A stretch of DNA of 59,813 nt, the filler included, from Jimgerdemannia flammicorona (Eukaryota): assembly GCA_003990765.1 (NCBI GenBank). It is 3 parts of 3 records of this genome, joined end to end, with 100 filler letters (N's around TTAATTAATTAA, not from the genome) between each part and the next. Parts side by side here need not be neighbours in the genome. Positions count along the whole stretch, not along the records: positions 19,978 to 39,846 come from RBNJ01001820.1; positions 39,947 to 59,813 come from RBNJ01001821.1; 1 more part is not named here. One strand, given 5' to 3'. The position numbers were made by a program, and so were the translations under genes. This document shows positions 22,912 to 47,289 of this stretch, one piece after another. How positions within the stretch are numbered: position 1 is the first letter of the stretch; each line of letters opens with the position of its first letter. The notes below the pieces were generated by a model, which was not told the DNA's origin, did not search any database, and saw only the letters and a program-made list of their open reading frames with translations.

Positions 22912-25900
22912 GTTGCATAGTTAATTTCGGCATCATTGAACTTGTGGGAATGATAGGCCACCAGGTGTCCTTCTTGCATGAGCATGGCTCCAAGGGCTAG
23001 GTCAGAAGCATCAGTAGTAACTTCATATGGCAGGGCAGGGTTTGCCACTTGAAGTACTGGGGTGATTATCAAGGCATCTTTCAGTGCTTGAAAGGCTGTA
23101 TCTTGTTCAGGTCCCCAATTTACAAGATTGTTGAAGTCTTTCTCTTGTTTCATGGTCCAGGGCTGTTCTCCTTTCTTGTTGTACTTGGTCATTTGGGTAA
23201 GGGCAGTAGTAATTTTAGCAAAGTTGGCAACAAATCATCTGTAATAGTTTACTAATTCCAGGAATGACTGTAGGTCCTTCAACTTCTTGGGTCTGGGCCA
23301 ATCCTTGATTGCAGAGATTTTTCTGGGGTCCACTTTGATTCCATTTGGGGTGACAATGTGTCCAAGGAATTGATTTGCAAAGAGTCGATTTTCTCAGAGT
23401 TTCAGTAGACTAGTTCAAGGTGTTTGAGATGTTTCTCCAGGGTTTTGCTGAAGACTAGGATGTCATCAATGTAGACAACAATAAATTTGTCTAGATATGG
23501 GTGTAGGATGGTATTCATCAGGGTCTGGAAGATTACTAGAGCATTAGTTAAGCCAAAAGGCATAACCAGGAATTTGAAGTATCCATAGCAGGTTCAAAAG
23601 ACTGTCTTGTAGATGTCTTCTTCTTTCATGACAATTTGCCAGTAACTATTTTGTAGGTCAAAAGAGCTCATAAATTGTGGATTGGTGAGCCTATCGAATA
23701 TTTCATCGATTCTGGGTAGTGGGCAATAGTTCTTGATGGTCTATTCATTGAGATCATGGTAATTAATGCATATTCACAAGTCTTCTCCTTTCTTTACAAT
23801 GAAGAGGACTGGTGCACCATAGGGTGATATACTAGGTCTGATAAATCTTTGTTCTAGAAGTTTATCAATTTCTTTCTTGAGTATATCAATTTCTCTCAAT
23901 GACATATGGTAGATTGACTTGAAGGCTGGCTTGGTATCTGGGATGGTCTTGATGGTATGGTCTACTGCTCATTTAGGAGGTGGGCCTTTTAGAAGTTTCT
24001 TTGGGAATATGTCTCTGAATTTCTGGAGTAGTGGTCTGACATAGCTGTCAACTTTGGAAAAGTCTTCTTCAGAGTTCTCAGGTTCTCCTTTGGATGGGCA
24101 GATGGAGATGGTGAAGAGAGGACATTTCTTGGCTAATTTTTTGAGTTATAGCTTGTTGATATGTATGATCTTTGGTCTAGGGTCACTAGAGTTGAGTGAG
24201 TCCTTTTTGCCTTGCAGCTTGAAGTTGTAGCATTCTTTCTTAATAGTCAGAGAATGGTTTATCCAATTGATCATAGGGTTCTCTTATTTCAACCATGGGG
24301 TTCCAAGAATGATCTTGTTGTCAGGAAGTAGTACAATTTGGAAGGTAACATGTACTCAGTAGTCACTAATTCGGAAGAGTAGATTGCAGACTTTCTTGCT
24401 AATAATATATGAGGTTCTATCAGCTATAGCAACTGCTTGAGTTTATTATACCAGAGAGGTGAAGACCTTGAGTCTATTGGCTGTTTCTTCATTGATGAAG
24501 TTGCCTGAGGCACTGCTGTCTATCATATTCTTGACAGGTGCTTGGTTGATAAAAGCTTGGAGTGTAAGTAGTTTGTCTGATATAATAGTGGTGATTTCAG
24601 TTATAGGAACTTTCCTTCTGTTGATTCTTCTTTGAGCCAATTCATTGACATAAGAGAAGCAATCATCAATCATTCAGGAAGAGTACATTTCAATGCCATG
24701 GGGGCATCGGCTGCTTGGTACATATCCATCTTCGATTTTCTTGTAGAATTGTTCTTCTTTATTTATAGTAGGTTGGGCTGGGGTCTTGTTTGATGAGCCA
24801 AATCCTTTGGATCCTCAGATGGTAGGTAGTAGTTCAGGGACTTCCTTAATTGTCAGAGTTGACTCAATTTTTTTAAATAGGATCTGGGCAATACAGAATC
24901 CAATGGAAATCTTGAAAAGTATCTAACTGTGGTTTCAGATAAGGACAATAATTTTGCCTGTGTAATCCTCATCAATGACTCCTCCTTCTACTGAGAGTCC
25001 TTTCAATACTAAGCTGCTACAACAGCATATGCTTCCAACATGTCCTTCTGGAATTTGGATGCTGATTCCTGTATAGACTTACTTGACTTCTTAGTTGGAG
25101 ACTGTAGCTTCTTCAGCTACATATAGGTTATATCCAGCTGCTTTTTGACTTCCTTTGGTTGGGGCCTTGGCAGTTTGTCTTAACTTGACAAAGTCTAGTA
25201 TTCTGGTGGTCAGGTTATTGAGATGGTACAGAGTAGTAACAGTTGCTCATATTGCTGTTTGGGGTTTTCAGTTGAGGTAGGTACTGGTCATGTGTCCTGT
25301 CTTTCGGTAGTAGAAGCATGCTCTACTTTTTCAAAGTTCATTCCTTTCTCCTTTGGTGAGTTTCTTGAAGGTACTTGGCTGAGTGAGTTTATGATTTCTG
25401 GGTGTCCATGAGATAGATGTGGAGAGAGCTCAAGATGCTTCATGCTTGGGTTCTTCTTTCTTGGTCCAAGTCTTTTCCTTGTTGTTGAATTGTCTTTGGG
25501 GCAGAATGGGTCCAGCTGTTAGGATTCACTTGACCATAGTCTTGATTCTTGTCAGGCACCATTATTGGTGATCACAACTAACTAGACAGCCTTGTTCTTG
25601 GATTTTCCTAGTAAGCCATTCAGGCAGGGCATCAAATAAATGGTCTGCTCTTGTACCATTTTGTGCTTCATCATTGGCAATATATCCTAGGCCAATAGTA
25701 TTCAGGAGTGACTCAAGTTTTGTATAGAAGGTTTCAAATTCTTCTTTGCCATATATATCAAATTTGAGGTTGTGGAGTTTTACTCGAGATTCGGCAATCA
25801 TGGTTTCACTGTGGTATTGAGCAATCATAAGTTGTTTGAGTCCAGGGGCTGCAGGATGGGCTCCATATCCTGGGATATTGTTTGCTACATTCTGAGCAAC

Positions 25901-27866
25901 TATTGCAGATCAGGGGTCCCATGTGAGGGATTTTTCAGGAAGGGTTCGCCACCATTCTTTAGTGGGTCCTTGGAAGAATGTAACAACTCAGTGAACATAG
26001 GCTGTAGTGGTAGCAAAGAGTTGTTTCAGAGTATGGTCTTGATTATTTGTCAGAAGACAGTTAGCAACTCACTCATTGGTCCATTGATTGGCTTTGAAGT
26101 TGGTGTCAACTACACTAATGAAACTTTGGACTTCTTGTGTAGTACCATTGAAGGTAGGTAGACTCAGATTTTTAGTAGGTTGGGTCTGTTCAGCTAAGGC
26201 AGTAATGGTTGCTGCCATTATGGCTACCTGGGCTGTGAGGTCTAGAATCTGTTGGTTTGCCATATTATTTACTGAAGGCAGTTAGACTACTGATAGTGAT
26301 GTTACTAGTACTACTTGAGATACTAGTACAAAGTGTGATGGGGTTCTTTGAGTCTGTGTAAGTTGTTGGAGTAGTAGTTGTGGGTCTGGAGTGAGGGCTT
26401 GATAGATAGCTGTCTATTGCTATATAGGTGTATTCTGTCCTAATGGAGGTATGTCTCCTTCGATAGTATATCTGAGATTGAATTCACTGAGATACTCCTC
26501 CTCTTCTTCAGTTTGGTCCCCATATAATTGGATTTGCTCGGCATCAAAGTAGATAGAATCAGTTGTATATCTGATTTCGGATGGACTTAGTTCAAAATCA
26601 AGTTCTGGTTTGATATTGGTTTCAGGTTCAGGTAGGGCTATAGCTGGGCCTGCTTCTGGTTCAGGGTCAGGTTATTGATGAAGGGTTTCTCTTGCTTCTT
26701 CCTTAAGGATATGGTGGGCCTTGCTGTTCTGGAATCAGTAGTATAACATGGTCTTGCTCCTGGTATGGTGAAAGTCAGTAGAGTTAAGCCACTTAGCTAC
26801 AGAGGCTTGGGCTTCATGAGGAACTAAGGCTAGAAAGACTGCTGCTGGTTGTCCTAGGTTGCTTAGATTTGTGGAGCTGACAAAACTCTTATTGAGAAGA
26901 GTAAAGAAGGCTTCAATAAGACCTTTTTCATCCTGACTTGCTGGATGTAGTGCAAGGAGTTTAGTGAATAGGGTTTTGTCTATTTGCTGGTTTAATCAGA
27001 GTACTTCTTTCTTTAAATGAAGTTTGTCACACTTGTTGCAGATGTGAAGGTCAAATTGTCCTTATATGTCAGGTTCAATTCTCTCCAGATTATCAGATGG
27101 TTCAGAATAAATTCCAGTTCAGAGGTTGGGCTTTATACCAACTTGTAGGAATTCTCAGAGGGGTTTTGTAGTAGGGTGAGGAAGTATCTTAAAGTGGAAT
27201 TGGATTGTAAACTGCTGCTACTAAGTTGTAAGAGAGTTGCTTTTTTGAAGTAACTATTATGTAGTTCTGGAAGGATTTTCTGGAAGTTCTAGATATTCTG
27301 AAAGACTATTTTCTTATGGTCAAGATCAATTTCATATAGAGTACATCCTCTATGCTTATTGATTTCAAGATCAGGTTGATGTCTCAACTAAAGTCCTTTT
27401 TCAGACTAGTTTTAGATATTTAGGATTTTCTGTATTTCAGAAAGTTTGAGAAACTAAGACTAGCTTAGTTGAATTGGCATATCACTGCAGACAATACCCA
27501 ATTAGGAAATTTCATAATAGTGTTAGGAGTGAGACCTAACAGGGAGCAGATTTACTTAAGAGTGGTTTGTAGGTTATTAAATAGGTTTATTTGCTATTTA
27601 TGATATTGCTATACTAGGAGTAGTTGTATGAAGGGATATTGTGGGGAAGTATTCAGGAATATTCTTATATGTTTGAGTCTGAGATTCTGAGGTCTGAGGG
27701 AGGGGGTATTTATACTAGTAAGGGGCTATCTAGACTATGCTAGATATGGATGTAGCACTAAGTGCCTTGCTGAGTCAGAATATAGTTATATAGTATAAGA
27801 CTAATCTAACTATACTATGACTGCTAAGCTATCTATAGGTTTAGGCACTATCTGGGTAATTCTTAA
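22912..27866 (-). mobile_element. Ty3/Gypsy relic: LTR end, long pre-gag ORF, gag, dUTPase, protease, RT and partial RNase H (integrase absent)
   Basis: gag MANQQILDL...LPTFNG (26263); knuckle ACFYYRKTGH (~25300); protease MIDSSASGNFI (~24510); [31 protein letters not shown] (~23460); RNase H VTTDASDLALGAML. LTR TATAAATACCCCC at ~27714. Confidence 0.92.
24790..25198 (-). pseudogene. Retroelement-encoded trimeric-type dUTPase domain between gag and protease
   Basis: All five motifs are recognisable: KAAGYNLY, CSSLV, GGVIDEDYTGKI, FCIAQI and TI*GSKGFGSS. Confidence 0.92.
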
Positions 27867-28555
27867 TAGTGCTCTCAATGAATTGAATCGAGTTGAATTT
27901 GACCTCAATTCAATTCGATTCGAAATATTCAAGGGCCAATTCAATTCAATTGAATCGAATCAAAGGTCCAATTTGATTCGAAGTTTGATTTGAACCTTAA
28001 TTTTTCAATATTCAACAACTCAACGAAAACATGTCCAAAATTAATGAATTTTAGCTTGTTGGATTTGCCTTATTTAGGCGAATCCAACACAATAAAGAAT
28101 AACAAATTTGGATATGTTTTCGTCAAGTTATTGCATTTTGAAGTTTAGGTAGTACTCCAATGAATCGAAATTCGATTCAAATCGAATCAATTTGATTCGA
28201 ATGAATCAAATCAAATCAATTTGATTCAAACTCGAACGGATCGAATCAAATCAATTCGATTTGAATCTAAATATAATAGTAATTCACACACATGGTTTAA
28301 TATACAACAACACTCTCTCAAAGTAATCAAGCATGTCCAATACACTTTTGATATCACTATCTATGGAGGATACTATGATAATAGCTTCAGTGTTAGATGC
28401 AAGTATAGCTACAACAAGTGTAGTCTCATCACAGATCTCATCATGGTCTGAGAAAGGAAAAGAATGCTCTGACATTTAGAAGGAGTTCACAAAGGAGCAT
28501 ATGGAAAATGGAGATGTTTGAATCAAATATAACTACCCTCCACTATATTACCGGT

Positions 28556-29302
28556 CACAACATGGGCAACACGGGCAACACGGGCAACACGGGCAACACG
28601 GGCAAGACAGGCAAGACGGGCAAGACAGCAAGATGGGCAACATGGGCAAGATGGACAGATGGCAAGACAGGCGACATAGGCAAAATGGGCAAAATGGGCA
28701 ACACAGGCAACACGGGCAATACAGACAACACAGGCAATATGGGCAATATGGGCAACATGGGCAACATGGGTAACACAGGCAACACGGGTGGGCAAGACAG
28801 GCAAGATGGGTAAGACAGCAAGATGACAAGATGAGTGACATGGACAAGACGGGTAAGATGGGCAAGATGGGCAAGACAGGTAAGACAGGCAAGATGGGCA
28901 AGATGGGCAAGATGGCAAGATGGCAAGATGGGCAACATGGGCAAGATAGGTAGCAGCAAGACAGGCAATACATATGGGCAAGATGGGCAAAATAGGCAAA
29001 ACAGGCAAAATGGACAAAATGGGCAAAATGGGCAAAATGGGTAACACAGGCAATATGAGCAACATGGGCAGGCAATACAGGCAACACGGGCAATATGGGC
29101 AGGTAACACAGGCAACATGGGCAACACGGGCAGGCAACAAGGGCAACATGGGCAACACAGGCAACACAGGCAGGCAACACAGGCAACACAGGCAATATGG
29201 GCAACATGGGCAGGCAAGACGGGCAAGATGGGCAAGATGGCAAGATGGGCAACATGGGTAAGATGGGCAGACAGTAAGACAGGCGACATGGGTAAGACAG
29301 GG
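28556..29302 (+). repeat. ~9-bp minisatellite (GGGCAACAC / GGGCAAGAT variants) inside the transposase BED region
   Basis: Directly visible tandem array of about 750 bp. Confidence 0.95.
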
Positions 29303-29452
29303 ATCAAATGTAACTACTGTAGAGCATCATATAAAGCTATTGGTAGTTCAATAATAAATTTGTGGGCACATTTTAATAAGTATCATAAGAGTCATCAAGG
29401 AGGAGGAGGGATAGAGTTATTTTTTTTGCAAGTATGTTTTTTATATAACTTG

Positions 29453-29509
<57 letters not shown>

Positions 29510-30086
29510 TTATTGTTATTAATTTATTATTATCTTACAATATTCAAAAATAGCCAAAATTCTCCATGCCATTATTTTGAGAAAAGCTTGTTTGCTAGAT
29601 TATTAGTAACAGTCAGTCTTTTATGGTTGTTGAGAATTTGAAGTTGAAAGATGTTTTTTCCCTTTTAAAACCAGACATTATTATGCCTTCTGCTGGAACT
29701 ATATGAAATGAAATTAAACTGGTCTTTCAACAGAAGCATGATACCATCAAAATTATGTTACAGATAAGATCTAATATTTTGACATTGAATATTAATTCAA
29801 ATATTCGAATTAATCTTATTGTATTCGAAAATAGAATATATAAGGTCAAATATTCTTCACTATTGATACATGGATATCTCCAAATATGCATGCATTTCTT
29901 GGAATTAATGCATACTGGATCTATCAGAATTGGCAACTCAACTATATACTGATTGATTTTGTTAAGCTATCAGGATCTCATTCAGGTAAAAATATCACTG
30001 ATGCCTTTGGAAGATGTGTTCAAGATTTTGACATACAGACAAAGGTATGTAGATCATATTTTGAAAAGGTCAAAAAAAAAAAAGTC

Positions 30087-30212
30087 AGGATAGTTGGGAT
30101 TTTCGAAAAGAGTGGAATTTTCAGGATTTTTCGAAAAAGAGCAGGATTTTTCAAAAAAGGGCAGGATTTTCAAAAAAGGTCAGAATTTTTGAAAAAGATC
30201 AGAATTTTAGAA
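30087..30212 (+). repeat. Short degenerate tandem repeat (ggatttttcgaaaaag-like) in a transposase intron
   Basis: Visible repeated units between the donor gtatgt (~30045) and acceptor (~30248). Confidence 0.7.
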
Positions 30213-31879
30213 AACTTATATTTCGAATTATTGATCTTTCACTCTAGATATTAGCTATAACAACAGACAATATATCTAACAACAACATGTTTTTTCAAGT
30301 AATTGGAATAGAGTTTGATACTGGCCTTTATCAGCCAATACAATATGTTCACTGTCTGGCTCATATTATTAATCTGGCTGCTTAGGCCTTTTTAATTTGT
30401 ATGAAGGCTGATGATGATAGGGAACTAATTTCAAAACTCCAGACAAGTATTATCAAGATTCAGTCATCACCACAATGTCTTGATCGATTTAAAGCACAAT
30501 ATAAAGCTTTTGGAATCAGCAATCCAAAAGAACTTATTCTGGATATTAAGACTTGGTGGAATTCGATGTATTTTATAATTGAATGGGCCTTAGAATTATC
30601 AGAGGTAAGTTTTATATTATATTATATTATATTATAATTTATATTATAATAATTTATTTATTAATAAATTAATTTTTATTAATAGCTCTTAACCACAACA
30701 ATTATGGCTGATAAAGATTTGCAAAAATATGCCATTAAAGATATTTGGCAGATGCTAAAAGATATTATAAAAATTCTAAAAAACTTTCAAAAGGTGACAG
30801 ATCTTGTAGCTAAGCAGAAATATACAACAATTTATATGGCTATTCCAATTTACAACTATCTGCTGAATAAGTTGGAGGATGATAAAGATATTCAAATGCC
30901 AAAGATGAGAGAGCCAACAGATGAGCCGACAGATGAGCCAACAGATATTATTCACCAGACAATAACAGCAGCTATTGATAAGTTGAAGATATATTATTCA
31001 ATGATAGATGGTCTTTATTATATTAGTACTAGTAAGTAAATATTTCAATAAATCTATTTTGAAATTTGCTTGGTACTAAGACAGTTTTGAAATTCGATCA
31101 GTTGGTCACTATGAATCTATTTTTTAGAATGAAAACCAGTTCTCAATCCCAGGATTAAACTAGAATATTATTCATCCCATGGTTGGGAAGATATTTGGAT
31201 TCAAGAGGCTGAAAACACACTTCATACAGTTTATAACAAAAACTATACCCCTCCATCTGGATCAGTTTATCACACAATTTCCAACATTGATGTCAATGTC
31301 AATATCGGCATTGATGTCAATGTTGATGTCAATGCTGTAATTGAAGAATGATAATGACATCCTTGCTGAACTAGATGAATATATATTCTATAGTGACAAA
31401 AGACAAAAACTGACAACAAATCCTGAGCAGGAGGTAGATGCTTATTTAAAAAGTAAAATTGTTAAATTTCAATCAGGAGTTGATATATTATCATGGTAGC
31501 AAGTGAGTTGGGCCTTCATATTTGAATTTGGTCTATATATTTCCAAAGTTTTTTTCTAATTAATTCAATTTATTGGAAACATTAGAGCCATAGCAGAGAT
31601 TTCCAAAATCTAGCAAAAATGGCATATGACTATTTAGCTATCCCAGTAACAAGTGCTCCAATTGAGCAGGTTTTTTCAAGTGGTACAGATCTTATAACAT
31701 CCAAAAGAGGCACTTTAGACTCTGAAACAATCTGTGAATATATGTGTTTAAAGGCATAGCAATCAGTCTAGTATTCTGATCTCGAAATATAGTATAATCT
31801 TGAAATATAGTTTCTCAAAATACCAAATATATATACATACCTGATCATTATATTGGAATTCTGAACAATGAAGTATCTA

Positions 31880-32320: not shown

Positions 32321-32398
32321 GAATCTAAGCATCAGATAAAAAACATATAAATAGGCTGTCTAAGCTACACTTCTGTCTGCATTTTGAGCTAAAAAAAA

Positions 32399-32990
32399 AT
32401 GACCGATGAATTTCAAAATTACCTTCACCATTTATCTCTGCAAGTTTATCTTGAAGACTTCTCCAAGCACTTTGAGGAAATGAACAAGACCATCAGCAAA
32501 GTTTTCAAATGGCTAAATAATGACAATGATGACAAGACTGATGAAAACTACAAGAAAAACAAGAAGAAAATAGAGAAAGCACTTGAGAGATTTATCTCAG
32601 CCAGCTATACCCTTGCCAACCCTCAAGTCCAAGCCCCTGCTGGCCCTCAAGCCCAAGCCCCTGTTGGCCCTCAAGCCCAAGCCCCAGCCAGCCCTCAAGC
32701 CCTGGCCCCAGCCCCTCAAGCCCCAGCCCCAGCCTCTCAAGCTCTGGGCCCTCAAGCCCTGGCCCCTCAAGCTCCGGCCCCTCAAGCCCTGGTCCCTTAA
32801 GCCCCAGTCCCTCAAGCCCTGGCCCCAAAGCCAAGAAGAGGATGATATATTACAAGTTGCCATAATTGCAGAGTGTATGGTAAACATGTCATACCATTCC
32901 CAGGATTTGTCAACATCTTGATCCAACCATTCCCGATATTCCTCCAGACAAAAGACCATATGATAATATACATCGGATAGCAGCTGCTAT
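32399..32990 (+). pseudogene. Second ORF carried inside the hAT: charged N-terminus, Q/A/P repeat, SCHNCR motif; function unknown
   Basis: ORF 32399-32800 from the track. The repeat continues past a TAA into PRRG*YITSCHNCRV. Confidence 0.4.
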
Positions 32991-33448: not shown

Positions 33449-34822
33449 GTTCTTGATGATATCACCATCAATGATATTATCTCTGATGGAGTAGTTGTCT
33501 AAGAAAAGTGGTTTGCAGATTACTTCTCCTTGTTTGCTGAGGTAATAATACATATATTGGAACTTTGTCATCATCCCACAGGATTGCATTGTCTGTCTCA
33601 TATGCTGAATAAGGTATTGGTGGGTAAAGAAGGAGTGCATCATCTTTGCTTTCATCAGATTTGCTATCTACATATCTTCTATAGATTACAGTACTATGAG
33701 TCACAGGGTTATAGTAAGCTGGTGGCTGTGGTTCATGTTGTTCATACTCAGGTGGTGGAGTTGTTAGTTCAATATTGCAGGTTGTCTGAAGGTACAGGTT
33801 GTGTTCTCTGGTCTCTTCATTATAGTTGAAGTAATCAAGAGTAAATGCAGGTTAGTATTCATATCAGTGGTCATTGTCCCAATAAGTCTCGTATGTAGTT
33901 ATGAACTGTTGTAAGTTCATCAGCAGTATTGGTGGTATGATCAGGGTTGGCAGAGATCCTTGGCTTAAGATCATGTCAGCATCAGAGAGATCATTGTCTT
34001 CTGCTTCATCTTCATTGAACTGGATTATATTGTAGATATCCTTCATAGTATATCCAACTTGGGGCATTTGTAGGATGTGGTTATCAGGGTGCAGAAAGGT
34101 TCTGTCAGTAGTCTGAACATACTTGAGATACTTGTGGTTGAGTTCTTATATCATATCATCGATTTGGCCATAGGACAGGGTAGCAACCATTTTAGTGATA
34201 GTAACTCAGAGATAGGGAATAAAGGTGCTGTACTCATAAAAGAGTTCTTGGTATTTGCAGGCAATGAGTTTCTAGTATTGAGACATCTGGGTAATATCTG
34301 TATCATAGTGGTGTTTGACTATATCTTCTAGGAGGCAGCTGATCTGGTAGTAGCTTGAGATTTGTCTGATTTAGTGGGCCTCATTAAGCATGTTTAGGGT
34401 ATTCCATTGGGCTTCCATGAAGTAGAGGGGTGCTAGGCTATGGATATTCATAAGGGGCAGAGGGAGTGTGGTTTGATTGATAATAGTATTCCAAATATCA
34501 GTGTGGATGTGGTTGTAGATCTCAGTGGTCATGTTTGTGTATATTTAGAAGTTATAGTTATTGTTTGTTTTGGTTCTCTATTTCAATGTGTCTCAGTACT
34601 TGGTATATATGTATTTAGTCCTGATTGGTAAGATTCTGTTTATATAAATCTTGTATTCTGTGACTTTGTATTGACTCAGCTTTGTGTGCTGTGACTTCAG
34701 TTTGACTCAGCTTTGTGATCTTGCAGGTGATTTCCAGATTTGTTTGGAGGTCACAGGTGATTTCAGTGGCTTGTTCAGAGGGTGACATGTGATTTCAGTG
34801 GCTTGGAGGTTGTGTACTTACA
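33449..34822 (-). mobile_element. Distal (U3) part of the long 5' LTR of the 22912-27866 Gypsy, containing a ~365-codon decayed ORF starting at 34532
   Basis: TG terminus shared with 5122. ORF MTTEIYNHIHTDIWNTII...LFLDNYSIRDNIIDGDIIKN continues across the hAT to a stop at 27843-27841, upstream of the TATA box. Confidence 0.75.
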
Positions 34823-35195
34823 CTAATACTATAGTGCAAACAGGAATTATAACACAAGCTCCCAAAGGTACATATATCTGCCTTGCTGAGCAAAGCAGCC
34901 TAGCTAAAGAGTTCAATATTGGGCTAGGAGGAGGAGTAGTTGACCAAGAATTTACTGGTGAAATCTGTATCATCTTGTGAAATTTTGGAGACATATCATT
35001 TGAAGTCAAAGTAGGCCAAAGAATTGCCCAAGCAATCATTGAAGAAATCTGTCAAGATCTCACCATCAAAGAAGTCATCAAGCTCTCTCAGACAGACTAT
35101 AGCAAGAAAGAGTTTGGATCAACCAACAAACCTCCTAGTCAAAGGGTCACCACTATGAAGGAAGATGATGAAAACTGGTATAAGAGAATTACAAG
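34823..35195 (+). pseudogene. Gypsy dUTPase fragment, inverted relative of 39125-39510, truncated by the LTR at 34822
   Basis: QSSLAKEFNIGLGGGVVDQEFTGEI, GQRIAQ, TDYSKKEFGST and MKEDDENWYKRI. Confidence 0.9.
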
Positions 35196-35489
35196 TAACA
35201 ATATCTATCACACAGATGGACTTAGATTGGTTTTGATATTATCAGCTTTCCTAAGTTCTATATGAAGTATCTGTCATTATCCAGTAGAGATGATACAGAT
35301 GGTATGAAATGAAGTTGTTCAAATGTGTTTTGCTATACTATACTAGATTGTCCTTTACCTGAGTGTCTTTTTGTTAATTATAGTATTTCTTTTTTTGCAA
35401 TATTCAATATTATATATTTTTGGATAAAAAATATATAGTATCCTCCTGTTTGCTATATGCTCTAATTTTTAAAAGCTGCAGTTTCTTCC

Positions 35490-38400
35490 TCTGGTGGGGG
35501 GTGAGTGTTTCCATATAGTCCTGGAGGACTTTATATATATTCTCCAGAGCTTCTTCCTTTTCTCAGATAGTATTATAGATGGGATAATCTCTCCACTTGA
35601 TGAGGAAAAACCACTTAACTATTTTGGGATATTTGCAGATCTTGTAGTCAAGTACTTTCTCAATTTTGAATTTCTCATAATTATTGATCCTAATTGGAGA
35701 GTGGTGGTGGAACTATATACTCAGAGAATGAGTTCTCATAGTAGTCCACCAATTGACTTATATGGAATACTGAGTGTACTCAAATATTATTAGGAAGTTG
35801 CAACTTGTAGTTGACTTTGCTGACTTTTTGCACAATCTTGTATAGTCCAATTCTTCTAACACAGAGTTTCTTGGCTAGTTGTTATGCTAGAGTATCTGGG
35901 TGAAGGTAGTCTGTTCTAAGCATAACTATGTCACTAATATTGTAGAAGACTTCTCTTTACTTCAAGTTTGCATAATTGGTCTAGTAGTCCTGTGCTTCTA
36001 TGAGAGCATCTCTTATCATTTGGGTAAGATCAGAAATAGTCTCAGCCAGATCTTGGGCTACTGGGACTACTGATTTTGTAGTAGTACTCAGAGTCCTTGG
36101 GTGTTGACCATAGTTCAGAAAAAATAGAGTCTTCTTTGTAAAGGTTTTCTGGCTATTATTATAGGCAAACTCAGTATGAGCAAGATACTTGTCTTAATTA
36201 TTCTACTTGTAACAGCAAAAGATGCTAAGTATCTATTTGAGGGTCCTATTAATTTGCTCAGTTTGACCATCAGTCTGGGGGTAGTAGACAGTAGAGAACT
36301 TTAGCTTGATTCCATGGAGAGAGAAAAATATCTTCCAGAAATTGCTTATGAACTTAGTATCTCAGTCAGATACAATAGTACTAGACATATCATATAGCCT
36401 GAATACTTGGTTGAGAAAAATCTCAGCAATCTCTGGTACTATAGTAGTAGTCTTGGTGGGTGCAAAATGGGCTTGTTTGCTTAGGCAGTCTATAAATAAT
36501 ATAATGGCATCCTATCTTATCTTGGTCTTGGGGAGCTGAATAATAAAGTCTATTGCAATCTGATCTCAGTTATGACTCAGGATAGGCAGAGGTTATAGAA
36601 GTCCTGCTGGTACATAGCTTGTTACTACTTTTGAACCTTTGGCATATCTTGTATAAAGCCACAAAGTCTTTGATGTCCTTAGTCATCCTTGGCCAGTAGA
36701 ACTCTCTTAAGAGGAGATTGTAAGTCTCCTCAAAACCAAAGTGTTCTGCTGCAGGAGTATTATGGAGTTCCTGTATGATCTTGAGCTATAGAGTATCATT
36801 GTTGAGTACAACTACTCTATCATAGTCCCTATAGATAAGTTCATTATGGTAAGTGAATCTCTTGGACATTTGCCTCATTGATTCTGGGACCTTGGCCTCT
36901 GGGTCTTGGCAGGATTGAAGGAAATTCATTAGGGGGCTATCTTGTTGGTAGCCATTCTTGATCATCTGGTTAAGGTCTTCAATTACCTCGACCATAAAGA
37001 CAAGTTTGTCTTCCATATACCTAGAGAAACCATCAGCTACACAGTTAGTTTTTCCTGGGATATACTTAATTTCCATATCAAAGTTGATAATAATTTTCAT
37101 TCAGTGGGCTTGTCTGTGGATCAGTATAGGCTAGGTGTGAATATACTGTAGAGTATGGTAATCAGTATAGGCTATAAATAGTTGTCTTAGGAGGAAATAG
37201 CACCATTTCTGGAGTGCAATAAAAATGGCCAGGAGTTCCTTCTTATAGATAGTATACTAGGTCTCAGCTGGCTTGAGCTTTTGGGAAAGGTAGGCCACTG
37301 AGCAATCTTCTTGGCTGAGCACTGCCCCAATGGCAATGTCAGAGACATCTGTGGTCAGAGTAAATGGCCTAGTAGGGTCAGGTGCAATTAGTACTGGGGC
37401 CTCTGTAAGGAGTCTTTTGAGATAGTCCATAGCCTGGGTATATTTGGGGTTCATTTGGTCTTGATATTTACTCCTTTGTGGACCAGACTGGTCAGTAGAG
37501 CTGCAATAGTAGAGTATCCTTAGATAAATCTTCAGTAGTAACTAGCAATATTCAGAAAGTACTAGAGTAGCTTGAGGGTAGTGGAGATAGGAATATCCTT
37601 GAGGGCTAATATCTTTCAAAAGTCCATATTGATACCTTTAGCAGAGATAATATGTCCTAGATACTCAATCTGATCTTAATAGAACTTGTACTTACTCATC
37701 TTGGTATAAAGCTAGTGTTCTCACAGAAGGGTCAGTACCTGTCTGAGATAGGTGTGGTATAACTCTACTGTTTTGCTGTAGATTAGTATATTATCAATAT
37801 ATATAAGGATACAGATGTTGAGGAGTGGTCCAAAGATATCATTCATCAGATACTGGAATGTTGCTAGTGCATTGGTCAAACTAAAAGGCATATGTAGCTT
37901 AGAACTAGTAGTGTCTAAACTGTGTTTAGAAGGCTGTCTTTTCAATGTTCTTCTCATCAATGAGAATCTGATGGTAGCCATTTCACAAATCTAGTAGGGA
38001 AAAGGTCTTAGTCTTGAAGATTTGATGCAACAACTTATCAATCCTAGACGGGCATACTAGTTCTTGATAGTGATCTTGTTGAGAGCTCTATAGTTAATAC
38101 ATATTCACAGAGTGCCATCCTTCTTCTTAACAAATAGAATAGAGGCTCCAAATGAGGAGCAGCTGGGTTTAATATATTCTTGGGCCAGTAGTTTGGTCAA
38201 CTCATCCTTAAGAGTGTTGAGTTCAGATTGGGCTAGTTGATAGATACTCTTGTATCGGGGTTCAGATCCTGGAATGAGATCAATTCCATGTTAGATTTGG
38301 TACTTGGGTAGAAGTCCTTGAGGGTCTTGAAATACATCTTGGAATTCTTAAAATAGTTCTTGAGCTTCTATTAGAATTGGGCTACTTATAGCTTCAGTGA

Positions 38401-39846
38401 CTTCTTATATAGTATAGATGAAATAGGTATTTCCCTTTTTTCAAGAGAGTCTCTTCATTTGGATGGCAGAGATAATTTCGATTCCTTGATAGTTGGTACC
38501 TTTCTGGGGTATCAGGGTGATCTTTCTACCTTCATGGGTCAGATTAATCTTATTGGTCCTCCAGTGGATGTCTGGGTTATGCTGGGTCAACTAGGCTTTT
38601 CCTAGAATAATGTCTTGTCCTAGGAGATCTATAATACTGAAGTCTAACTTCTCTTGATATTTGCCAATCTTAAGCAAGAGATCTTTGCAGATCTTGGTCA
38701 GTGGTGCATGTTTTACTATCACCAAAGATAATACCCCTTTTCTCATTAGTTGGTCTGCTTTAGGCTCCAATCCTCTTAGCAGTCTTGGTACTGATATAGT
38801 TTCCAGTAGCACCACTATCAAGCAAGATACTGACATTCTGTCTGTAGACTTGGTCTGTGAACTTGATACAACTGTCCTTCTTCTTAATAGTATTGAGCTC
38901 TTCATCCTCATTATTGTCCCAATTGCTGTCAGTTTCCTTGAAGTCAGTTTCTCCCCATTCTTTATAAGGAGAGTGGTCTTGTTTAAATTTCTCAGTCTGT
39001 TGGATCTGGTTTCTTTCAAAGTTAATTTTGAAAACTTTAAAGAGACATGTATGGCATTCACCAATATGTTTCATGCAGTATATTCAGATAGAATGAGAGT
39101 ATCATCCACATGGTATATAACTATCTGCAATTCTCTTATACCAGTTTTCATCATCTTCTTTCATAGTTGTGATCTTTTGACTGAGAGGTTTATTGGTTGA
39201 TCTAAACTCTTTCTTGCCATAGTCTGTCTGGGAGAGCTTGGGGACTTCTTCAATAATGAGATCTTGATGGATTTCTTCAATAATTGCTTGAGCAATTCTT
39301 TGGCCTGTTTTGACTTCAAATGGGGTATCTCCAAAATTTTGCAAAATGACATGGATTTTGCCAGTAAATCCTTGGTCAACTACTTCTCCTTCTAGCTCAA
39401 TATTGAATTCTTTGGCTAGGCTGCTTCACTCAATAAGACAGATATATATATATATACCTTTGGGAGCTTATATTACAATCTCTGTTCACACTGTAGTATT
39501 GGTACTTAGTGGAATAGTGAGGTCTTAGCTACTGTAGAGGTCGTACCCAGCATCAGTAGGGTGGACCTTAGTGGGGATAATAGCCTTGTATCATATCTTC
39601 TGTACTTTAATGATATTCTCAGGGTTCTTCTTTTCTGGACCTTCTCCAATGACAGTAATGTTCTAGTTACTGAGTTTGCCTGATCTGTTTCTCTTCTCAG
39701 AGTATTTGAATGAGATGTATCCTGCCTTCCTGTAGATGAAGCATAATTCTTTTTCATAAAGCTACTTCTTTTTATCCTCAGTGAGAGGTCTTAGTTCTCT
39801 GGGGTTTTGTTGGTTTCTTTAATCATTTCTTTAGTCTTTTTTTTTT
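35490..39846 (-). mobile_element. Chromovirus-type Ty3/Gypsy relic: gag end, dUTPase, protease, RT, RNase H, integrase, chromodomain
   Basis: Knuckle CFIYRKAGY (~39740); protease [33 protein letters not shown]; RNase H TTDVSDIAIGAVL, YIPGKTNCVADGFSR; integrase STVYYPQTDGQTE (~36270); chromodomain FLIKWRDYP...I*EKEE (~35560). Confidence 0.92.
39200..39610 (-). pseudogene. dUTPase domain between gag knuckle and protease
   Basis: DAGYDLYS, SSLAKEF, VVDQGFTGKI, GQRIAQ and TDYGKKEFRST. Confidence 0.9.
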
Positions 39847-39946
39847 NNNNNNNNNNNNNNNNNNNNNNNNNNNNNNNNNNNNNNNNNNNNTTAATTAATT
39901 AANNNNNNNNNNNNNNNNNNNNNNNNNNNNNNNNNNNNNNNNNNNN
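39847..39946. other. Artificial contig linker (44 N + TTAATTAATTAA + 44 N)
   Basis: Same structure as 19878-19977. Confidence 0.97.
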
Positions 39947-42900
39947 GACGGCTTTGGGTACATTGAGGCAGGCCTTTCCGACTTGAATGGGGATGTCTCT
40001 GACAAGTCCAAGGGGTGTGGAAGCTGATCCATCAGCCATGATAACTCTTGCTTTGGTTCCTTCATCTATTCCCCATCCAATTCGCTCCAACATCCTTTGG
40101 GTGATGATGCATACTGCTGCTCCAGTATCAACGAGAATTCTGGCATTTTCACCATGCACTTTTCCATTGGTGAGTCTTGTAGATTGATGTTCATGTCGCT
40201 GGCTCTCATGGACTGTGTGGATAGTGCTGGGTTCTTGAGTGTGTGGTCCTTGGACTGGAAGTCTCTTGGTATCTTCCTTGGCTTCTTTCAGGAATTTTCG
40301 CCTGACCTCTGGTGCATTCTTGAGGACTTGCTCAACTATAAGACCAGCATTCTGTAGGTGGATATGTTTCCAAAGTGAGGCTGCTGTATGGGGCTTGCTG
40401 CTTCTTTGGTGTCTTGGTCCCTTGGGGTGTAGTCTCTCATTCCTGATGGGCATTTCATCAGCTGAAGATTCTATACTCATATGCTCATCTTCTTCAAGGT
40501 CTGGCAGGATAGAGCTGGGGGTTGTCCTAGATGGTCCGGCTTCTGGTTCAGGAGTATCTCTTCTAACTCGCTTCTCCTGTTCTTGTGGAGTGTCTGAAGA
40601 AGAATGGCCATGTTGTGGATGCTTGCCTGTGGATATTGTTACTGGCAGTTGAGGTGGGGGGTTCCTTCGTGGTCTTCCTTGTCCTCTGGTCTCTGCGGGG
40701 GTAGCTTCCCATGTCACCTTGGATGGAAAAGCCTCGAAGTATGGGTAGACATCATCTTCTTGACCATGGAGCCAGGCTGCTTCTTCTTCCATTTCCTGAG
40801 TCTCTTCATCTACCTGAAAGAGGTTGACATTTCTGTCATTGGACTGGGTGGATTGATTCCTTGGACAATTCCTCTAGATGTGGCCTTGATTTCTGCAGTT
40901 GAAGCAGGTGGGACCATAGGAACCAGTCGCTGATGAGACTATAGTTGCAGCTGGTAGTGCGGGAGCAGGACCTCTGTTGTCTTGTTGCTGGTAGTCTGGT
41001 CTATTATCATGACGGTAGTCTTGTTGTCTTCTACCTTGGTTCTTCAGCTGGGCAACCACAATGGCCAGGTCCTTCATTTGCTTGGTGAGTGTCGTCATGG
41101 GGTCTTCTTGAACTCTTGATGGTGGCTGCTGCTGTGGTTGCCTGAATGGAGTCGGATTTGTGGGTGCTGGTCTGTTCTCATACATAGTTGGCTATCTGGG
41201 CTCTGAGGAAGGCATTCTCTTGCTCTATAGTTGTTCCTTGGGTCCTTGGGGTTTCAGCTTGGATTGGCTCATAATAGCCTTGTACTTGTTGTACTGGTCT
41301 ATAATCTGCTTCCCAACATCCTTGTGCTCCAGCAACTTGCTGTTCAATGTTTCGATATCCCATTCTGATAACTTGCCTTCGGAGTTCTGGGTATAAGCCA
41401 TTGAGGAAGGTAGTTGAGGCTAGAGCCAGTTGGACTGCTGGTTGAAGGTTTGCCTTGATCATTTGAGCTTGAATCTGATGGTAGAAACTCTTGGGAGTTT
41501 CATTGGCAGCTTGGCTCATATAGGTCAAAGCCTCCTGTACTTCTTGTTGGCACTTGAATCCATTGAACTGAGCATGGAGCCAGGCTTTGTGAATCATGTA
41601 CCTTGCTACATGGTTTCTATCAGGTTGAAGGCCATCATTCAGTTCCTCTGCATGGATTTCACCTCCGGCTTGCTTGGCTTGATTATACCTCTGTAGGGCT
41701 AGTCCTCTCAGGAGTGACTCCACAATTCTGAGTTTTCTTACAGCATCCCATTGTTTGGCAGCTGCTTGAACTTCAATTTCTCCAAAGAATTCCTCAATAT
41801 CTTCATTATCTGCACCATGGAACTTCTGAAGGTAGCTCATGTCTGGCTTGTCTTCACTATCTGAGTATTGTTCAGGGGTAGGGGATCTGGCAGATCCTCG
41901 GGGTGATGGGGAAGGTGGTGGTGCTAGTACTTGATGATCTAGTGGTACTGGCAGAGGGCGGTGTCTTGGTGAGGGTGAGGGTAATCTGGCTCTTCTAATT
42001 AATGCTGGGGTTGAAGTCCTGGGTAGTGGTGGAGATCTTCTGATTGACTAGTGATAGTGGCGAGGTGTGAGTGACCAGGGTACTGAAGTTCGAGCAACTG
42101 ATGGTGGGAGTGGACTGATATAACTGATAGTGAGTTTGTCTGCCCCTTGCTGTTGTAAAGTAGTGAGGTCTTGTTCGCCTTGTTGTGGGTTTGTGTCACT
42201 GTCTAGATAATAGTATAGGTTGAATTCATCTCTTTGATGGTCTGATCCCCAATCGTCGTCTTGCTCTGGTTGATATGGATGGTAGTCCTCTTCTCCTTCT
42301 GATGTTTCAAAGTATACCTGGTCCAGTGGAGTGACTCAAGTAACAACAGTAGTTATGTAGTCACTTCTGTCTGAGTTCTTCCTATAGATAAGGGTCTGAT
42401 ACTCCTCAGAGATATCTTCTTCTTCTTCTTGGCCTAAGTCTTGGATCTGAAGGGGTAGTTCTGGTTGTCCTCTGAGTTGTCTCCTTTCTCTTGAAGTCAA
42501 GCCGTAATCTGGGTCACTTCTTTCTTCTGATTCAGTTTTCTGGCTACTGGTGTTAAATAGGGTCCTGGCTACTGTTCTGACAAGGGTGTGAGCTTTCTTT
42601 TCTGCTGAGGAGGGCTGTTGCTGCCCCTGGTTTAGTTGCTGACTTGGTCCTGCTAAGTTCTCCACTGTAGATAGCTGGGTTCTTGAGCCAAATGATCAAG
42701 TCTTTTGAAAACTTTCCCAGTTGAGCCCCCAAAATGTGGCATGCAGTTTGTATCTCTAGTTGCTTCAAGCATGGCTCAATGTGCCACTTGATGAAGTGCG
42801 CAGTATAAGACTGAGTGCATTTGCGATGGTTGCAGGTTGATGGTCACATGATCAGTTCATCCAATTCATACTGTGGAGGCTCAGGGCGAATTACTTCTTG

Positions 42901-43543
42901 AATGTACACAGTTCATGGTGCAGTAGGGGATCGTTCGGGTCAATGGTTCAGTCAAACATTCATTCTTAACTTGAGGGTGGGTTCTGGCAGTCGTTTGTTC
43001 ACTGGCGGTCTTGTTCTAGTATCCTTGGGTTCCTTGGCTGGGTTTCCGGGCCTTGAATCTCGAATGGTGGTCTGAATGGTGGTCTGAATGACAGCGGTCT
43101 TAAATGCACAGTCTTGAACCTCGAATGGCGGTTGGTTCTGAATGCACAACAGTCGGGTCGAATGCACAACAGTTGGCAGTTTTTTTTGTATGGCTTTCCT
43201 TTAGCAGCGAATCTTGAACATTTTCTGTGGCAAGAGAAAATTCTTTGACTCAAACCTTGAGTGATCGTTGCTCTAGTTATCTTGTTCTCAGAATTTATCC
43301 AGTCTCTTGGAGGCAGTGAGATTTCTCTGTAATCCTTTTTACTTTTAAATACAAACTGACTGAGGTTTATTCACTCTAAGATATAGGGTTATTTATACAA
43401 ATTTGCTAGCTAGGGGGGGCTAAGGTATACTACATTGTAGTGGTTTAATTGCTAAATATGGGTGTGACAATTGTTTGCACCGAATTGGGATAAGATGAGT
43501 GCTAGTGCTGGATATGGATGTTGTGGGTGGTATTACTGAAAAC

Positions 43544-43737
43544 GGATGTTGCTGACTTGCTGACAAACGTTGGCTGACCGGACTGAGGAAATGGACGTTG
43601 GATCACTGAATTGGAATAAGGCGAGTGCCAGTGCCAGGTTCAGTTGTTGGGGGTGATAGCACTAGAAATGGATGTTACTGACTTGCTGACAAATATTGGC
43701 TGACTGGACTGAGGAAACAGACATTGGATCACTGAAT
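43544..43737. repeat. Direct duplication (~126-bp period) within the putative LTR
   Basis: ggatgttgctgacttgctgacaaacgttggctgaccgga... (43544) versus ggatgttactgacttgctgacaaatattggctgactgga... (43670). Confidence 0.85.
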
Positions 43738-44106
43738 GGTAAAGTACCCTTCATCAGTGAACCAATCATCTTACTGGGTTGTGACTTCTTCATCCTGTTC
43801 TTCAAAGGGTGGGAGCACTGGCCAGGAGGTGAGGGGGTAGAATTGTGGCCAATCATCTTCGATGACATTCTCCAACCCTTGGACTGCTTGAAGGCAGACA
43901 GAGGATTAGTAGATTCTTTGTTCCTCCTCTTCTTCTTCCTCAGATCCTTCAGTTTCCATATTGGTAGAGACTTCTGGGACTTCTTGATTTGGTTCCCAAA
44001 CAATGAGGTGCGAATTGTAGCTGACAGAGTAGTGAGTAGTTGGGGTTGCTCCAACAGGTGTTGTAATGGTAATGGGTAGTTCTTCGAAGATTTCCATGAG
44101 ACTCAT
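43662..44106 (-). pseudogene. Accessory ORF B, acidic, upstream of the LTR TATA box; function unknown
   Basis: MSLMEIFEELPI...GSEEEEEEEQRIY* continues in frame through stops (ENVIEDDWPQFYP...EEQDEE). Confidence 0.4.
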
Positions 44107-44190
44107 TAGGTGACCTTGATAGTTGTCTCGGAGTGGAGTGGTGTGAAAGCCTGGTTGAGTGGGCTCAGTTTGTTGGCTTCCTACAGCAAC

Positions 44191-44600
44191 TCAGTTACTA
44201 CCAATAGAGTCAGCTACTTCTGATTCTATCCAGTCTGCATCTTCAGTTGAGAGGCAGGCGAGACTTCCAGCAGTCACTCCTTGTAAGTATGCTATAGCCC
44301 AGGGAATATAGCAGAAGATTTGGTAGACACGGAGGGCTCTCTTGATTAGCTGGCTGGTGGTTAACATTTCGGCAATGAGGTCTTCCTGATCACCTTCTTG
44401 GGTTTCATTATGAAGGCGGTGTCCAATTTTGTAATCATGCCAGAGGGTCATTCATTCAGCAGTATCTTTGAGCTATTGGGTCATTATGTACCGGTAATTG
44501 ATGAAGTGTCCAAGATCCTCGGTGTAGAAGTTCAGATGTTCAGAGGTATCTGGGCACCAAATAGCCTTCTTGATAGCTTCAAGGATTAGAATCTTTGAGC
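44191..44600 (-). pseudogene. Accessory ORF A (YKIG..L...ALRVYQIF...AIAYLQGV motif) upstream of the LTR TATA box
   Basis: ORF track 44191-44451, extendable upstream through stops. Homologous by eye to 50341-50540. Confidence 0.6.
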
Positions 44601-44863
44601 CAGGCAAGGGGGAAGAGCAGCGGGAGGTCTGGTTGGGGCAGTGGATAGGAGGTATTGTGTGGTGGGTACTTGTTCTTTGGTACTGATTCCTGAGGCGGAG
44701 TATGGTTCTTTAAATAACATAATCTTCCTTTTGGCTTAGATTATCATTGCTCCTTTTGGGGTAATCACCTAATGGGTCAGGCTATCTATTTGATTATCAT
44801 GCCATTATGTCGTCTGATCTTAGCAGTCACTGGTACTCCATTGTCAATTGCGTACATCACAAT

Positions 44864-45109
44864 AGTCATAACTTAGCTACCATATAGCTAGCAAAATTGT
44901 ATAAATATCTCCAGTATCTAGAGTGAATAAACCTTAGGTCAAAATAGTTCAAACCAAAGAAAAAGTAAGAGAAATAGTAAGCCTATAGACAGTTATACTT
45001 CAAACTTACCTATTCTATAACCTGAGGACTCTGTAGAGTTAAAGAAGATTAAGTTTTTAAGATACAGAAATTTGACATATCTACATAGTTACATATCTAC
45101 TATATTACA
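44864..45109 (+). repeat. 5' LTR (~245 bp)
   Basis: Direct repeat of 50881-51126, ending tattaca, with TATAAATA followed closely by GAGTGAATAAACC. Confidence 0.88.
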
Positions 45110-47289
45110 ACTTAGTATCTATTGATTGATAATTTAAGATGAATTCCTCACTTTCAAACTGAACAACAAATAACTTACTACCACCAAAATAAACATATAA
45201 ACTGAACTAAGATATCTAGACAAGATAGATATAAGACCACCAGTGTTCTATAGATATACTTCAGATGAATTAATCATTATCTTTATTAATAATTTCAAGT
45301 AGTATACTGCTGTAAGAACTCTGACAGTAAGATAGCAAGTAGCTCTCATATCCTTTAGTCTCTGAGGTCCTACAAGAGCAATATTCACAGCTACAACCTA
45401 TATAGAAAATAATGATAATACTGTACTGATAATACAGAAGACCTGACTCTAAGTTACCTACTATATAGATAAGATCAAGCAAGTCCTAAAGGATTAGCTT
45501 AATATAATATATTAAGAAATGAGTGCGAATCTAAACACATTCTATACCAGAATCTAATATAAATAATTCTTATAGATTATAATAATGCTATCTGAGACTA
45601 AGTAGCTGAGATAACCTTTATAAAGAGAGTCTACCTAGAGATAGCTATGGCTATCCACTTATTACCAGTAGTTCTGGATTAGCTACAGAAGATTACCTAT
45701 ACTCAGTGATATTGGATTGTCAGACATCTACAGAACTATACAATAGAAAGAGTCACTAGAGTTAGAATTGAAGTACTCATGGCAATTGGCATAATCTCTA
45801 CTATAGTAATCAATCAAAATATATCTCAATCAAGAGCTACAGAGCAGCAGAGAAACAGTGACCCTATAGAGGAACTCACTAAGAAGTACTCTGAAATAAC
45901 TACTCATCTAGGAGATATAATAAAGAAAATAGAGAAAGAGACTACCAATCAGTTCAAAAGTTGGCTGTGATCTCAGACAAGAAGAGAGATATCTGCTATA
46001 TTTATAGAGAAAAAGACTATTACTCATATAAATATATAAGCAAGTCTAAACATAAGACTCAGCCAAGCAATATTATACAAAATAAGAAACAGATCAACAC
46101 TATTACCTTTGAAGAGATCAGAGAGTCAGATGATGAAGGATGGAAAGCCTACTCTACCCAGACTACTATAAAGGATATCTATAAGGAATCTTATAAGAGA
46201 CCACCAGAGAGATCTAAGAACTTAGTAAAAAAACAGATAGATATTGCTACAGAAAGCCAAGCTAAAGAAACAGATCAAGATTTAGAATTGGAGCAGACTG
46301 TTCAAGATATCATTTGAGGAACTACTCTAGCTAGTGAGAGAGAAAAGGAGAAGAAGCTTTGAAAAACCAAGACCTTTAAGTATAATATCTTCAAGGATCT
46401 CAGCCAATGAAAAGTCAATACAACCTTCAGCCAGCTGGCAGAAATATCCACATTAGACAACAAATGAGATTTGGACTAGCTGAGATAACTAAGTATTAAG
46501 ATTGGAAGATAACTAAGGTCAAAAATTTTCAAGAGAACTTAAAAGAAGAAAGTGAAGACAATTACAAGACCTCTGTCTATATAACCTATCAGATTAAATA
46601 CAGAGTCTTCAAAGCCATTATTGATACTAGAGCAGAAGAATATCTTCTCAGTAAGAAAGCAGTAGACTGTCTAGGCTAAGAGATTGAAGAAGTAACTAAG
46701 TTGATATTTATTATAGTAGATAGTATAAAAGCCATTTCTCTAGGAAAGATTTGAGATATTCTCATCAAGTTTGGAAGAGCAACTATTCCAGTAGATGTAA
46801 TTGTAATCAATATAACTAACTATGATATTTTTATTAGTAACCAATAGCTTTATAAAGCTAGAGCAATAATTGACCTAAATGCTCAGAAGATATAGATTAT
46901 CTATTATAGATAGAAGATGTAAATCTCCATCAATATCAACAAGAGAGTTCTATCTAAAATAGAGGAAGAAGAAAGTAAACAAGAGAAAGCTATATAGTAA
47001 TTACTCAGAAGAAGAAAAAAAAAATCAGATAGATTAGTAAAGAAGATTGATACAAGAATATCATAGAAAGATATATACTATAAGAAGTCTGGCCCTATGG
47101 GATCAAGATGTACTATATGGAGTATATTAATAATTACTATCAGTATACTAACAGAATTAAGAAGATCTACCATAAATGAAGACAGAAGGCTCTCAAGAAA
47201 TAGGTAAGAGAAGAGAAAGAGAAGGAGGAAGAGGGTGAACCACTAGCCCTTCTAGAAGACAGTAATGATAAAGAGGAAATCAAGATTAA

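Follow-up and report, generated by a model that had tools for sequence, protein, structure and literature searches.

Three decayed elements carry the same small module

We analysed a 59,813-nucleotide stretch of the genome of Jimgerdemannia flammicorona (hereafter the window), in which three contigs from a repeat-rich assembly of 231 Mb are joined by spacers of N. Two of these contigs, with an N spacer between them, hold decayed Ty3/gypsy retrotransposons of three different families, here called A, B and C, and each of them encodes a copy of one small Cys- and His-bearing module in frame between its dUTPase and its protease. That the host elements belong to Ty3/gypsy is evident from their long terminal repeats (LTRs) and from a Pol order of protease, reverse transcriptase (RT), RNase H and integrase, as read with Pfam from translations of the window and of sister copies. 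An original prediction, made from this DNA alone, had reported three module peptides that align without gaps, with the order dUTPase-module-protease in A and B and protease-module-dUTPase in C. We find the peptides at their predicted places and the domain orders as claimed, by both Pfam and tblastn (Table 1).

The module does not depend on these three copies for its recognition. A profile built exclusively from 11 proteins outside the window returns exactly three places within it, at 58, 35 and 10 bits for A, B and C (E values of 1.6e-19, 2.3e-12 and 1.7e-4), and the next match scores -1.4 bits and nothing in the reversed window exceeds -0.7 bits. The exact DNA pattern for the core occurs 1242 times in the genome versus 0 times for the reversed pattern, and each window copy finds at least 150 scored genome matches. 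The peptides had also been proposed to carry damage by C>T and G>A changes. When each window copy is compared with five sister copies, such changes account for 66-74% of the differences (385 of 579, 459 of 621 and 1033 of 1487). Where the window copies depart from Cys or His they mostly show Tyr codons (TAT or TAC), one transition away. The Trp that replaces the first Cys in the third copy is a private change, given that 19 of the 25 loci found with this copy have Cys there and only one has Trp. In 40 loci chosen by the core pattern, a sample that deliberately excludes matches of the family A type, all 40 have Cys as the third ligand, whereas the fourth position holds Cys in 31 loci and Tyr in nine.

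A conserved domain with one probable metal site

The core had been read correctly, but the conserved unit is longer than the 29 residues first described: it starts about 17 residues ahead of the first Cys and runs on for about eight beyond the last. The domain as we now delimit it has approximately 44 residues and four near-invariant ligands in the arrangement C-x-H-x12-C-x2-C. Across 16 rows from separate lineages, 11 of which were found by a pattern that requires the four ligands, pairwise identity averages 0.82 at the Cys-x-His knuckle, 0.57 at Cys-x2-Cys and 0.27-0.42 in the remainder of the domain, compared with 0.07-0.17 overall outside it (0.07-0.08 in the distant flank on one side and 0.12-0.13 on the other). 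The Cys and His positions also hold in an alignment made without any pattern, which retains the four ligands in 13, 13, 13 and 12 of 13 tallied rows. An additional middle Cys and middle His are each kept in only seven of these 13 rows, which argues for one conserved metal site rather than two. We believe that the four ligands very probably bind a single zinc ion, as their spacing and conservation suggest.

AlphaFold2, given the 16 rows, models the domain with a predicted local distance difference test score (pLDDT) of 87 and a predicted template modelling score (pTM) of 0.67. Removal of the first helix lowers these values to 67 and 0.31, and the domain must therefore extend beyond the 29-residue core. 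In the predicted fold, a helix is followed by two very short strands with Cys-x-His at the turn, then by a short helix, and finally by a long helix that would start at Cys-x2-Cys. Net charge ranges from -4 to +4 and is negative in 11 of the 16 rows; the conserved residues are hydrophobic and acidic, the best-conserved charged residues being acidic, and aromatic residues are conserved beside the knuckle. Basic runs flank the module in families A and C, and the whole unit lies between flexible, often acidic linkers. Given these findings, we are almost certain that the module is a real domain that has been under selection.

Table 1. Positions in the window of the three module-bearing elements, their domains and related features
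Feature	Positions	Strand	Remarks
Element A	22911..27810	-	LTR, gag, knuckle, dUTPase, module, protease, RT and the beginning of RNase H; truncated, with numerous stop codons
dUTPase, element A	24785..25186	-	upstream of module; Pfam PF00692, E 2.6e-28; tblastn
Module, family A (chromovirus)	24626..24757	-	29-codon core of the original prediction at 24736-24650; 58 bits, outside-only profile
Aspartic protease, element A	24257..24571	-	downstream of module; Pfam RVP_2 above cut-off
Element B	35187..39832	-	Gag knuckle to end of integrase; cut by assembly gap
dUTPase, element B	39186..39608	-	Pfam E 1.4e-20
Module, family B (chromovirus)	39021..39152	-	core 39131-39045; 35 bits, outside-only profile
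Protease, element B	38561..38861	-	frameshifted; preceded by acidic linker
Family B inverted partial duplicate	34822..35193	+	part of dUTPase and first helix of module only; inverted repeat
Element C	44862..51124	+	both LTRs present, 246 nt, 87% alike
Protease, element C	46569..46895	+	upstream of module; Pfam E 0.004, below cut-off; tblastn
Module, family C (no chromodomain)	47039..47170	+	core 47060-47146; most decayed copy; 10 bits, outside-only profile
dUTPase, element C	47349..47699	+	downstream of module; Pfam E 9.1e-13; tblastn
Family F element (gag, protease)	39948..41684	-	cut by gap; in sister copies, protease and dUTPase flank a short C-x-H-x10-C-x2-C variant

Comparison with known domains

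The original prediction could not assign the module to a known domain, and our searches lead to the same place. Pfam gives nothing better than an E value of 0.039 at the module for eight members of the alignment and no family above cut-off there for 16 proteins. No described Pol linker domain was matched in Pfam, in the PDB by sequence (0 matches at E values up to 10) or in the fold searches, where Foldseek against the PDB and viral models returned none at an E value of 0.001 or better. With the core model, four of the five Foldseek rows are C2H2 fingers at noise-level E values of 5-9, and so are three of the six VIA-align rows (Z of 2.0-2.4, likewise noise, from a core model of low confidence). 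The best VIA-align scores are a Z of 2.4 for the core and of 4.1 for the full model, the latter being noise from helices; they are compatible with a new and with a known fold alike. The ESM Atlas offered only unnamed clusters (0.88-0.90, low recognition) and no usable named match.

Among characterized metal-binding domains, the retroviral zinc knuckle PF00098 (C-x2-C-x4-H-x4-C) is rejected because its spacing differs, and Pfam places it in Gag and never at the module. The C2H2 beta-beta-alpha finger, with a C-x2-4-C hairpin and an H-x3-5-H helix, has a different order of ligands. B-box domains hold two zinc ions through eight ligands and end in a His pair, and in treble-clef fingers a knuckle and the first turn of a helix together form one zinc site. 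The module resembles both in having a Cys/His knuckle and, in the predicted structure, a Cys-x2-Cys at the start of a helix, and those copies with six ligands look like a shortened B-box. However, its spacings are shorter, its middle Cys and His are variable, it lacks a closing His pair, it has an extra N-terminal helix and it matches no such Pfam family; for the B-box this holds at E values up to 10, and we reject that assignment. The predicted secondary structure is compatible with a treble-clef arrangement, and the fold searches gave no clear match. Among the papers listed in our literature searches, none describes this domain in its title or the opening of its abstract, with Repbase, GyDB, supplements (notably Additional files 1-2 of PMC2864245) and subscription papers outside the search. 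The domain is apparently unnamed, probably binds one zinc, is narrow in range and is dispensable.

Distribution of the module and its link to dUTPase

A search of 1.84 billion representative proteins yielded 15 matches, 14 of which are true. The remaining protein (P0013) is an ephrin-receptor-like repeat protein and was discarded as a false positive. Independent outside matches must number fewer than 14, since P0001 almost duplicates family B and P0003 family C, and most of these relatives are fragments from gene calling. A dUTPase is present in 11 of the 14, and the other three are pieces of 63-157 residues with no Pfam enzyme domain. Metagenome contigs contributed two loci among 202 candidates, none of 149 pattern matches in viral contigs was confirmed, and phage records gave no match. 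In one metagenome fragment (L241) the module precedes additional Cys motifs and a stretch similar to the beginning of P0016, an arrangement that by eye suggests a duplicated two-module unit.

The same association with dUTPase is seen within this genome. Of 175 module matches in fetched loci, which include some places fetched twice, 83 lie in the order dUTPase-module-protease and 79 in the order protease-module-dUTPase; seven more are cut by the end of the locus, three have a dUTPase with no protease found and three a protease with no dUTPase found. A dUTPase lies within 700 nt of 169 of the 175, and two of the three loci without one are visibly truncated or deleted copies. Across these loci and the outside proteins, no unbroken module-bearing element without a dUTPase was seen, only fragments or decayed copies. 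The module is also not equally frequent in elements that lack the enzyme: among the best 120 of 7646 Pol proteins nearest to the protease-RT region of family A, a set of 7646 that includes many from plants and algae, all 117 dUTPase-less proteins are without it, and two of the three dUTPase-bearing proteins have the module or a short variant. In addition, it is absent from 119 of 119 other dUTPase proteins. The module is therefore restricted to dUTPase-carrying gypsy elements, both chromoviral and chromodomain-less.

The original prediction held that the module travels with the dUTPase and always sits between that enzyme and the protease, and each statement survives in part. Where there is a module there is a dUTPase, but the converse fails. 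Of 30 loci recovered with the Pfam dUTPase model, 28 belong to a module-less chromovirus family, here called D, one to family A and one to a stand-alone dUTPase. In the 26 family D loci that reach the protease, this enzyme is joined directly to the dUTPase, and the outside protein P0221 likewise has a dUTPase and no module. The position between the two enzymes holds for the window copies and for the 83 and 79 matches given above, but not for P0219, a whole chromovirus polyprotein in which a C-x-H-x10-C-x2-C variant lies upstream of the dUTPase, between it and the Gag knuckle. A motif of the same short form occupies the protease-dUTPase linker in 17 of 20 loci of a further family, F. Taken together, the P0219 and family F motifs match the module with an hhalign probability of 94%, and none of 100 shuffles with fixed ligands did as well; the family F motif alone reaches 26%, with two of 100 such shuffles as good, and is only suggestive. 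A separate RT search, in which 30 loci were fetched from the best 150 of 19,832 candidates, gave only family B wherever upstream domains were visible.

Several observations on family F deserve mention in their own right. The sister copy of the window element at L200:1501-3231 (+) has a linker of about 400 residues that contains the short variant together with C-x-C-x5-C-x2-C and C-x2-C-x4-H-x3-C motifs and has no Pfam match. The first 700 nt of L245 appear, by eye, to encode a second, degenerate dUTPase-like domain between the dUTPase and the RT. In another copy (L194), an internal deletion at a short shared sequence has fused the short module into the RT, and the dUTPase is lost.

Evolutionary history of the module-bearing elements

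The module-bearing families do not form one lineage of elements. A chromodomain motif follows the integrase by eye in families A, B and D (L101, L102, L110, L117 and L247), whose RTs group at a support of 100/97 with those of two proteins that have a Pfam chromodomain (P0219 and P0226). Families C, E and F show no chromodomain after the integrase by eye in L242, L244 and L245, and their RTs fall outside the chromovirus group. The RT tree divides the two sets of families, A, B and D on one side and C, E and F on the other, with this support of 100/97.

The dUTPase tree tells a different story. Family D groups with host-like enzymes (81/92), whereas the 11 dUTPases from long-module or family F elements, together with that of the module-less P0221, all lie on one side of a branch supported at 84/85. 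A clade of the A, B and D dUTPases is rejected by the approximately unbiased test (p-AU of 0.007, or 0.046 with three outside proteins added), and a clade of module-bearing dUTPases is not rejected (p of 0.27). Because the dUTPase and RT trees disagree, we propose, with moderate support from these comparisons, that dUTPase and module moved together between gypsy lineages and that family D captured a dUTPase of its own. The stand-alone dUTPase mentioned above (L121; G000:C6287:6598-6984, -) is probably a host gene, and it is here, rather than with A, B and C, that the family D enzyme groups. Given the repeated Cys-rich linker units in the C/F group, the flip in domain order may have occurred by duplication followed by loss.

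Other features of the elements and the window

Element A is 87% identical to its sister locus L101 across 4955 nt, and element B is 85% identical to L110 across 4652 nt. Families A and B both have an in-frame Gag knuckle ahead of the dUTPase. Family A also has a sense open reading frame of about 400 codons, ORF3, between the chromodomain and the 3' LTR (L102:7425-8663, +; best Pfam E value 0.033, below cut-off), and two decayed copies of ORF3 are present in the window at 33451-34822 (-) and 5140-6503.

Elsewhere in the window, tandem decayed copies of a probable non-LTR element lie at 7000-19300 with spacings of about 2.1 and 3.5 kb, including an endonuclease-like open reading frame at 12132-12659 (-). 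At 28529-29304 a tandem array of 9-nt units lies upstream of the remains of a hAT-like transposase (about 29800-31040), and a proline-rich open reading frame contains a 15/24-nt array (32596-32826). The window is strongly CpG-depleted, with mostly 0-5 CpG per kb in the repeats (1000-54000) versus 39-83 per kb in gene-like stretches (20000-23000 and 55000-59813). Because CpG is depleted and CpA/TpG is not, the decay looks methylation-driven rather than like classical CpA-directed repeat-induced point mutation.

Possible functions of the module

Retroelement dUTPases keep uracil out of cDNA, and it seems appropriate to ask what a small, probably zinc-binding domain might add to such an enzyme. 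The explanation that we favour, with a probability of roughly 0.4, is that the module is a protein-contact adaptor for the dUTPase. It would be an accessory of this enzyme, kept with it through transfer between lineages and through the flip in order. After cleavage by the protease the module would remain on the dUTPase, three per trimer, and would anchor it through protein contacts to the reverse-transcription complex within the particle, such that dUTP is removed where the cDNA is made. Such a role would be like that proposed for nucleocapsid in the betaretroviral nucleocapsid-dUTPase (NC-dUTPase) fusion, except that it would be exerted via a protein surface. The module would be helpful rather than essential. 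A complex prediction for the module and a dUTPase trimer (pieces of P0009 plus zinc, with no alignment) scored 0.02 against a mark of 0.34, with controls not folded, and thus speaks neither for nor against such contacts.

We rank protein contact above nucleic-acid binding since the domain lacks a basic character and conserves hydrophobic and acidic residues. Nevertheless, the closest competitor, which we consider rather doubtful, is a nucleic-acid tether, in which the module would bind RNA or cDNA of the element as a zinc finger and so keep the dUTPase near the RT. The conserved aromatic residues beside the knuckle and the basic flanking runs of families A and C would suit such a finger, as would the position of the module N-terminal to the dUTPase in C, E, F and P0219, which is that of nucleocapsid in NC-dUTPase. 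An extra zinc knuckle also follows the dUTPase in the Juno elements of rotifers (PMC5408684). The core fold matches are mostly to C2H2 fingers, but these are weak and at the level of noise, and a near-neutral or acidic charge, acidic residues as the best-conserved charged positions and the lack of CCHC spacing all speak against this reading.

We judge it unlikely that the module is a spacer for processing or assembly, that is, a rigid or self-associating unit that reconciles a trimeric dUTPase with a dimeric protease or times the activation of the protease, and that is needed only where the two enzymes adjoin. Its location between both enzymes in either order, its long terminal helix and a distance to the protease that varies less than the distance to the dUTPase are what such a spacer would lead one to expect. 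However, dUTPase and protease are joined directly in family D, P0221 and P0219, the P0219 variant lies away from that junction, and a spacer would not need an identity of 0.8 at the knuckle.

More improbable still is a free accessory protein that the protease releases to act on a host protein for the control of uracil or nucleotides, or for silencing, within the pathway in which the dUTPase itself works. The self-contained fold between flexible linkers, the further Cys motifs and repeated unit seen by eye in linkers of the C/F group (L200 and L241) and the strong C>T decay that affects the repeats of this genome are in keeping with this idea, but no search produced a host partner, and a released protein would not need to stay beside the dUTPase. 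We regard as very improbable a functionless passenger captured with the dUTPase from a donor gene, since the module, which can be lost (as in P0221), shows much stronger conservation than its flanks between lineages that share only about 35-40% identity in their dUTPases and is carried by none of the 119 other dUTPase proteins.

Several points weigh against the adaptor explanation. No binding partner is indicated by any result. The elements of family D and P0221 use a dUTPase without a module, and in A and B a second tether may be redundant given the Gag knuckle upstream. The module lies about 20-100 residues from the protease and about 10 to more than 250 from the dUTPase; since the former distance is the steadier, and since a protease is near the module in almost every element, a role related to the protease is also possible. 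The history that we propose has difficulties as well. A single clade of all retroelement dUTPases is not rejected (p-AU of 0.063), and the dUTPase tree is weak, with no starred deep support, long branches and two proteins (P0014 and P0017) that shifted between runs. The short variant in P0219 stands beside a host-like dUTPase, which fits no single cassette, and the outside relatives on which the comparisons draw are few and mostly fragments.

A more ambitious proposal, which we would not expect to hold, is that the module is the founder of a new small zinc fold and, with one lineage of dUTPase, makes up a mobile two-part cassette that was permuted while being exchanged between chromoviral and non-chromoviral elements. 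The module would then have no kinship to nucleocapsid and would serve specifically either to place the dUTPase at the reverse-transcription complex or to engage host control of uracil. If this were true, the short form beside a host-like dUTPase in P0219 would mean that the pairing arose, or was formed again, more than once.

The practical consequences are modest. The module would add one family to catalogues of the Pfam and GyDB type, and perhaps one small zinc fold. It might also serve as a handle for the placement of dUTPase in the particle and help to trace the exchange of domains among gypsy lineages. Our understanding of these elements as such is unchanged, given that the copies in the window are dead, the range is narrow (14 clusters in 1.84 billion) and relatives do without the module.

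Relationship to known dUTPase-bearing retroelements

Fungal Ty3/gypsy elements with captured dUTPases are on record. One study describes PosPlaTy3-3, -4 and -5 of Postia placenta as well as elements of Phanerochaete and the Tmt1 elements of Tuber, in which the place of the dUTPase varies, with positions ahead of the protease and between the protease and the RT among those found, and for which independent captures were proposed (PMC2864245). The same study calls the role of dUTPase in LTR retrotransposons unclear. Varying positions in fungal gypsy elements are also given in a second source (PMC6431247), and the main text of a third contains neither 'dUTPase' nor 'zinc' (PMC3248453). The main text of PMC2864245 names only CCHC and HHCC motifs as metal-binding, does not use the word 'zinc' and describes no domain between dUTPase and protease; by description, these elements differ from those reported here.

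A possible functional parallel is found in betaretroviruses. In Mason-Pfizer monkey virus (MPMV) and mouse mammary tumour virus (MMTV), the dUTPase remains joined to nucleocapsid and interacts with integrase, capsid and nucleocapsid, and it has been proposed that the enzyme is thereby kept where DNA is synthesized (PMC4531489, PMC12789967). In both systems a zinc-binding unit, putative in our case, accompanies a dUTPase, and for NC-dUTPase this unit was proposed to bring the enzyme to reverse transcription (PMC4531489). However, the betaretroviral unit, as described there, is the basic CCHC nucleocapsid, whereas the module forms a near-neutral C-x-H-x12-C-x2-C domain of its own and can stand on either side of the enzyme. 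The Juno elements of bdelloid rotifers are similar in carrying an extra zinc motif beside the dUTPase within Pol. As described (PMC5408684), that knuckle lies between dUTPase and RT rather than beside the protease, and this description sets it apart from the module of the Jimgerdemannia elements.

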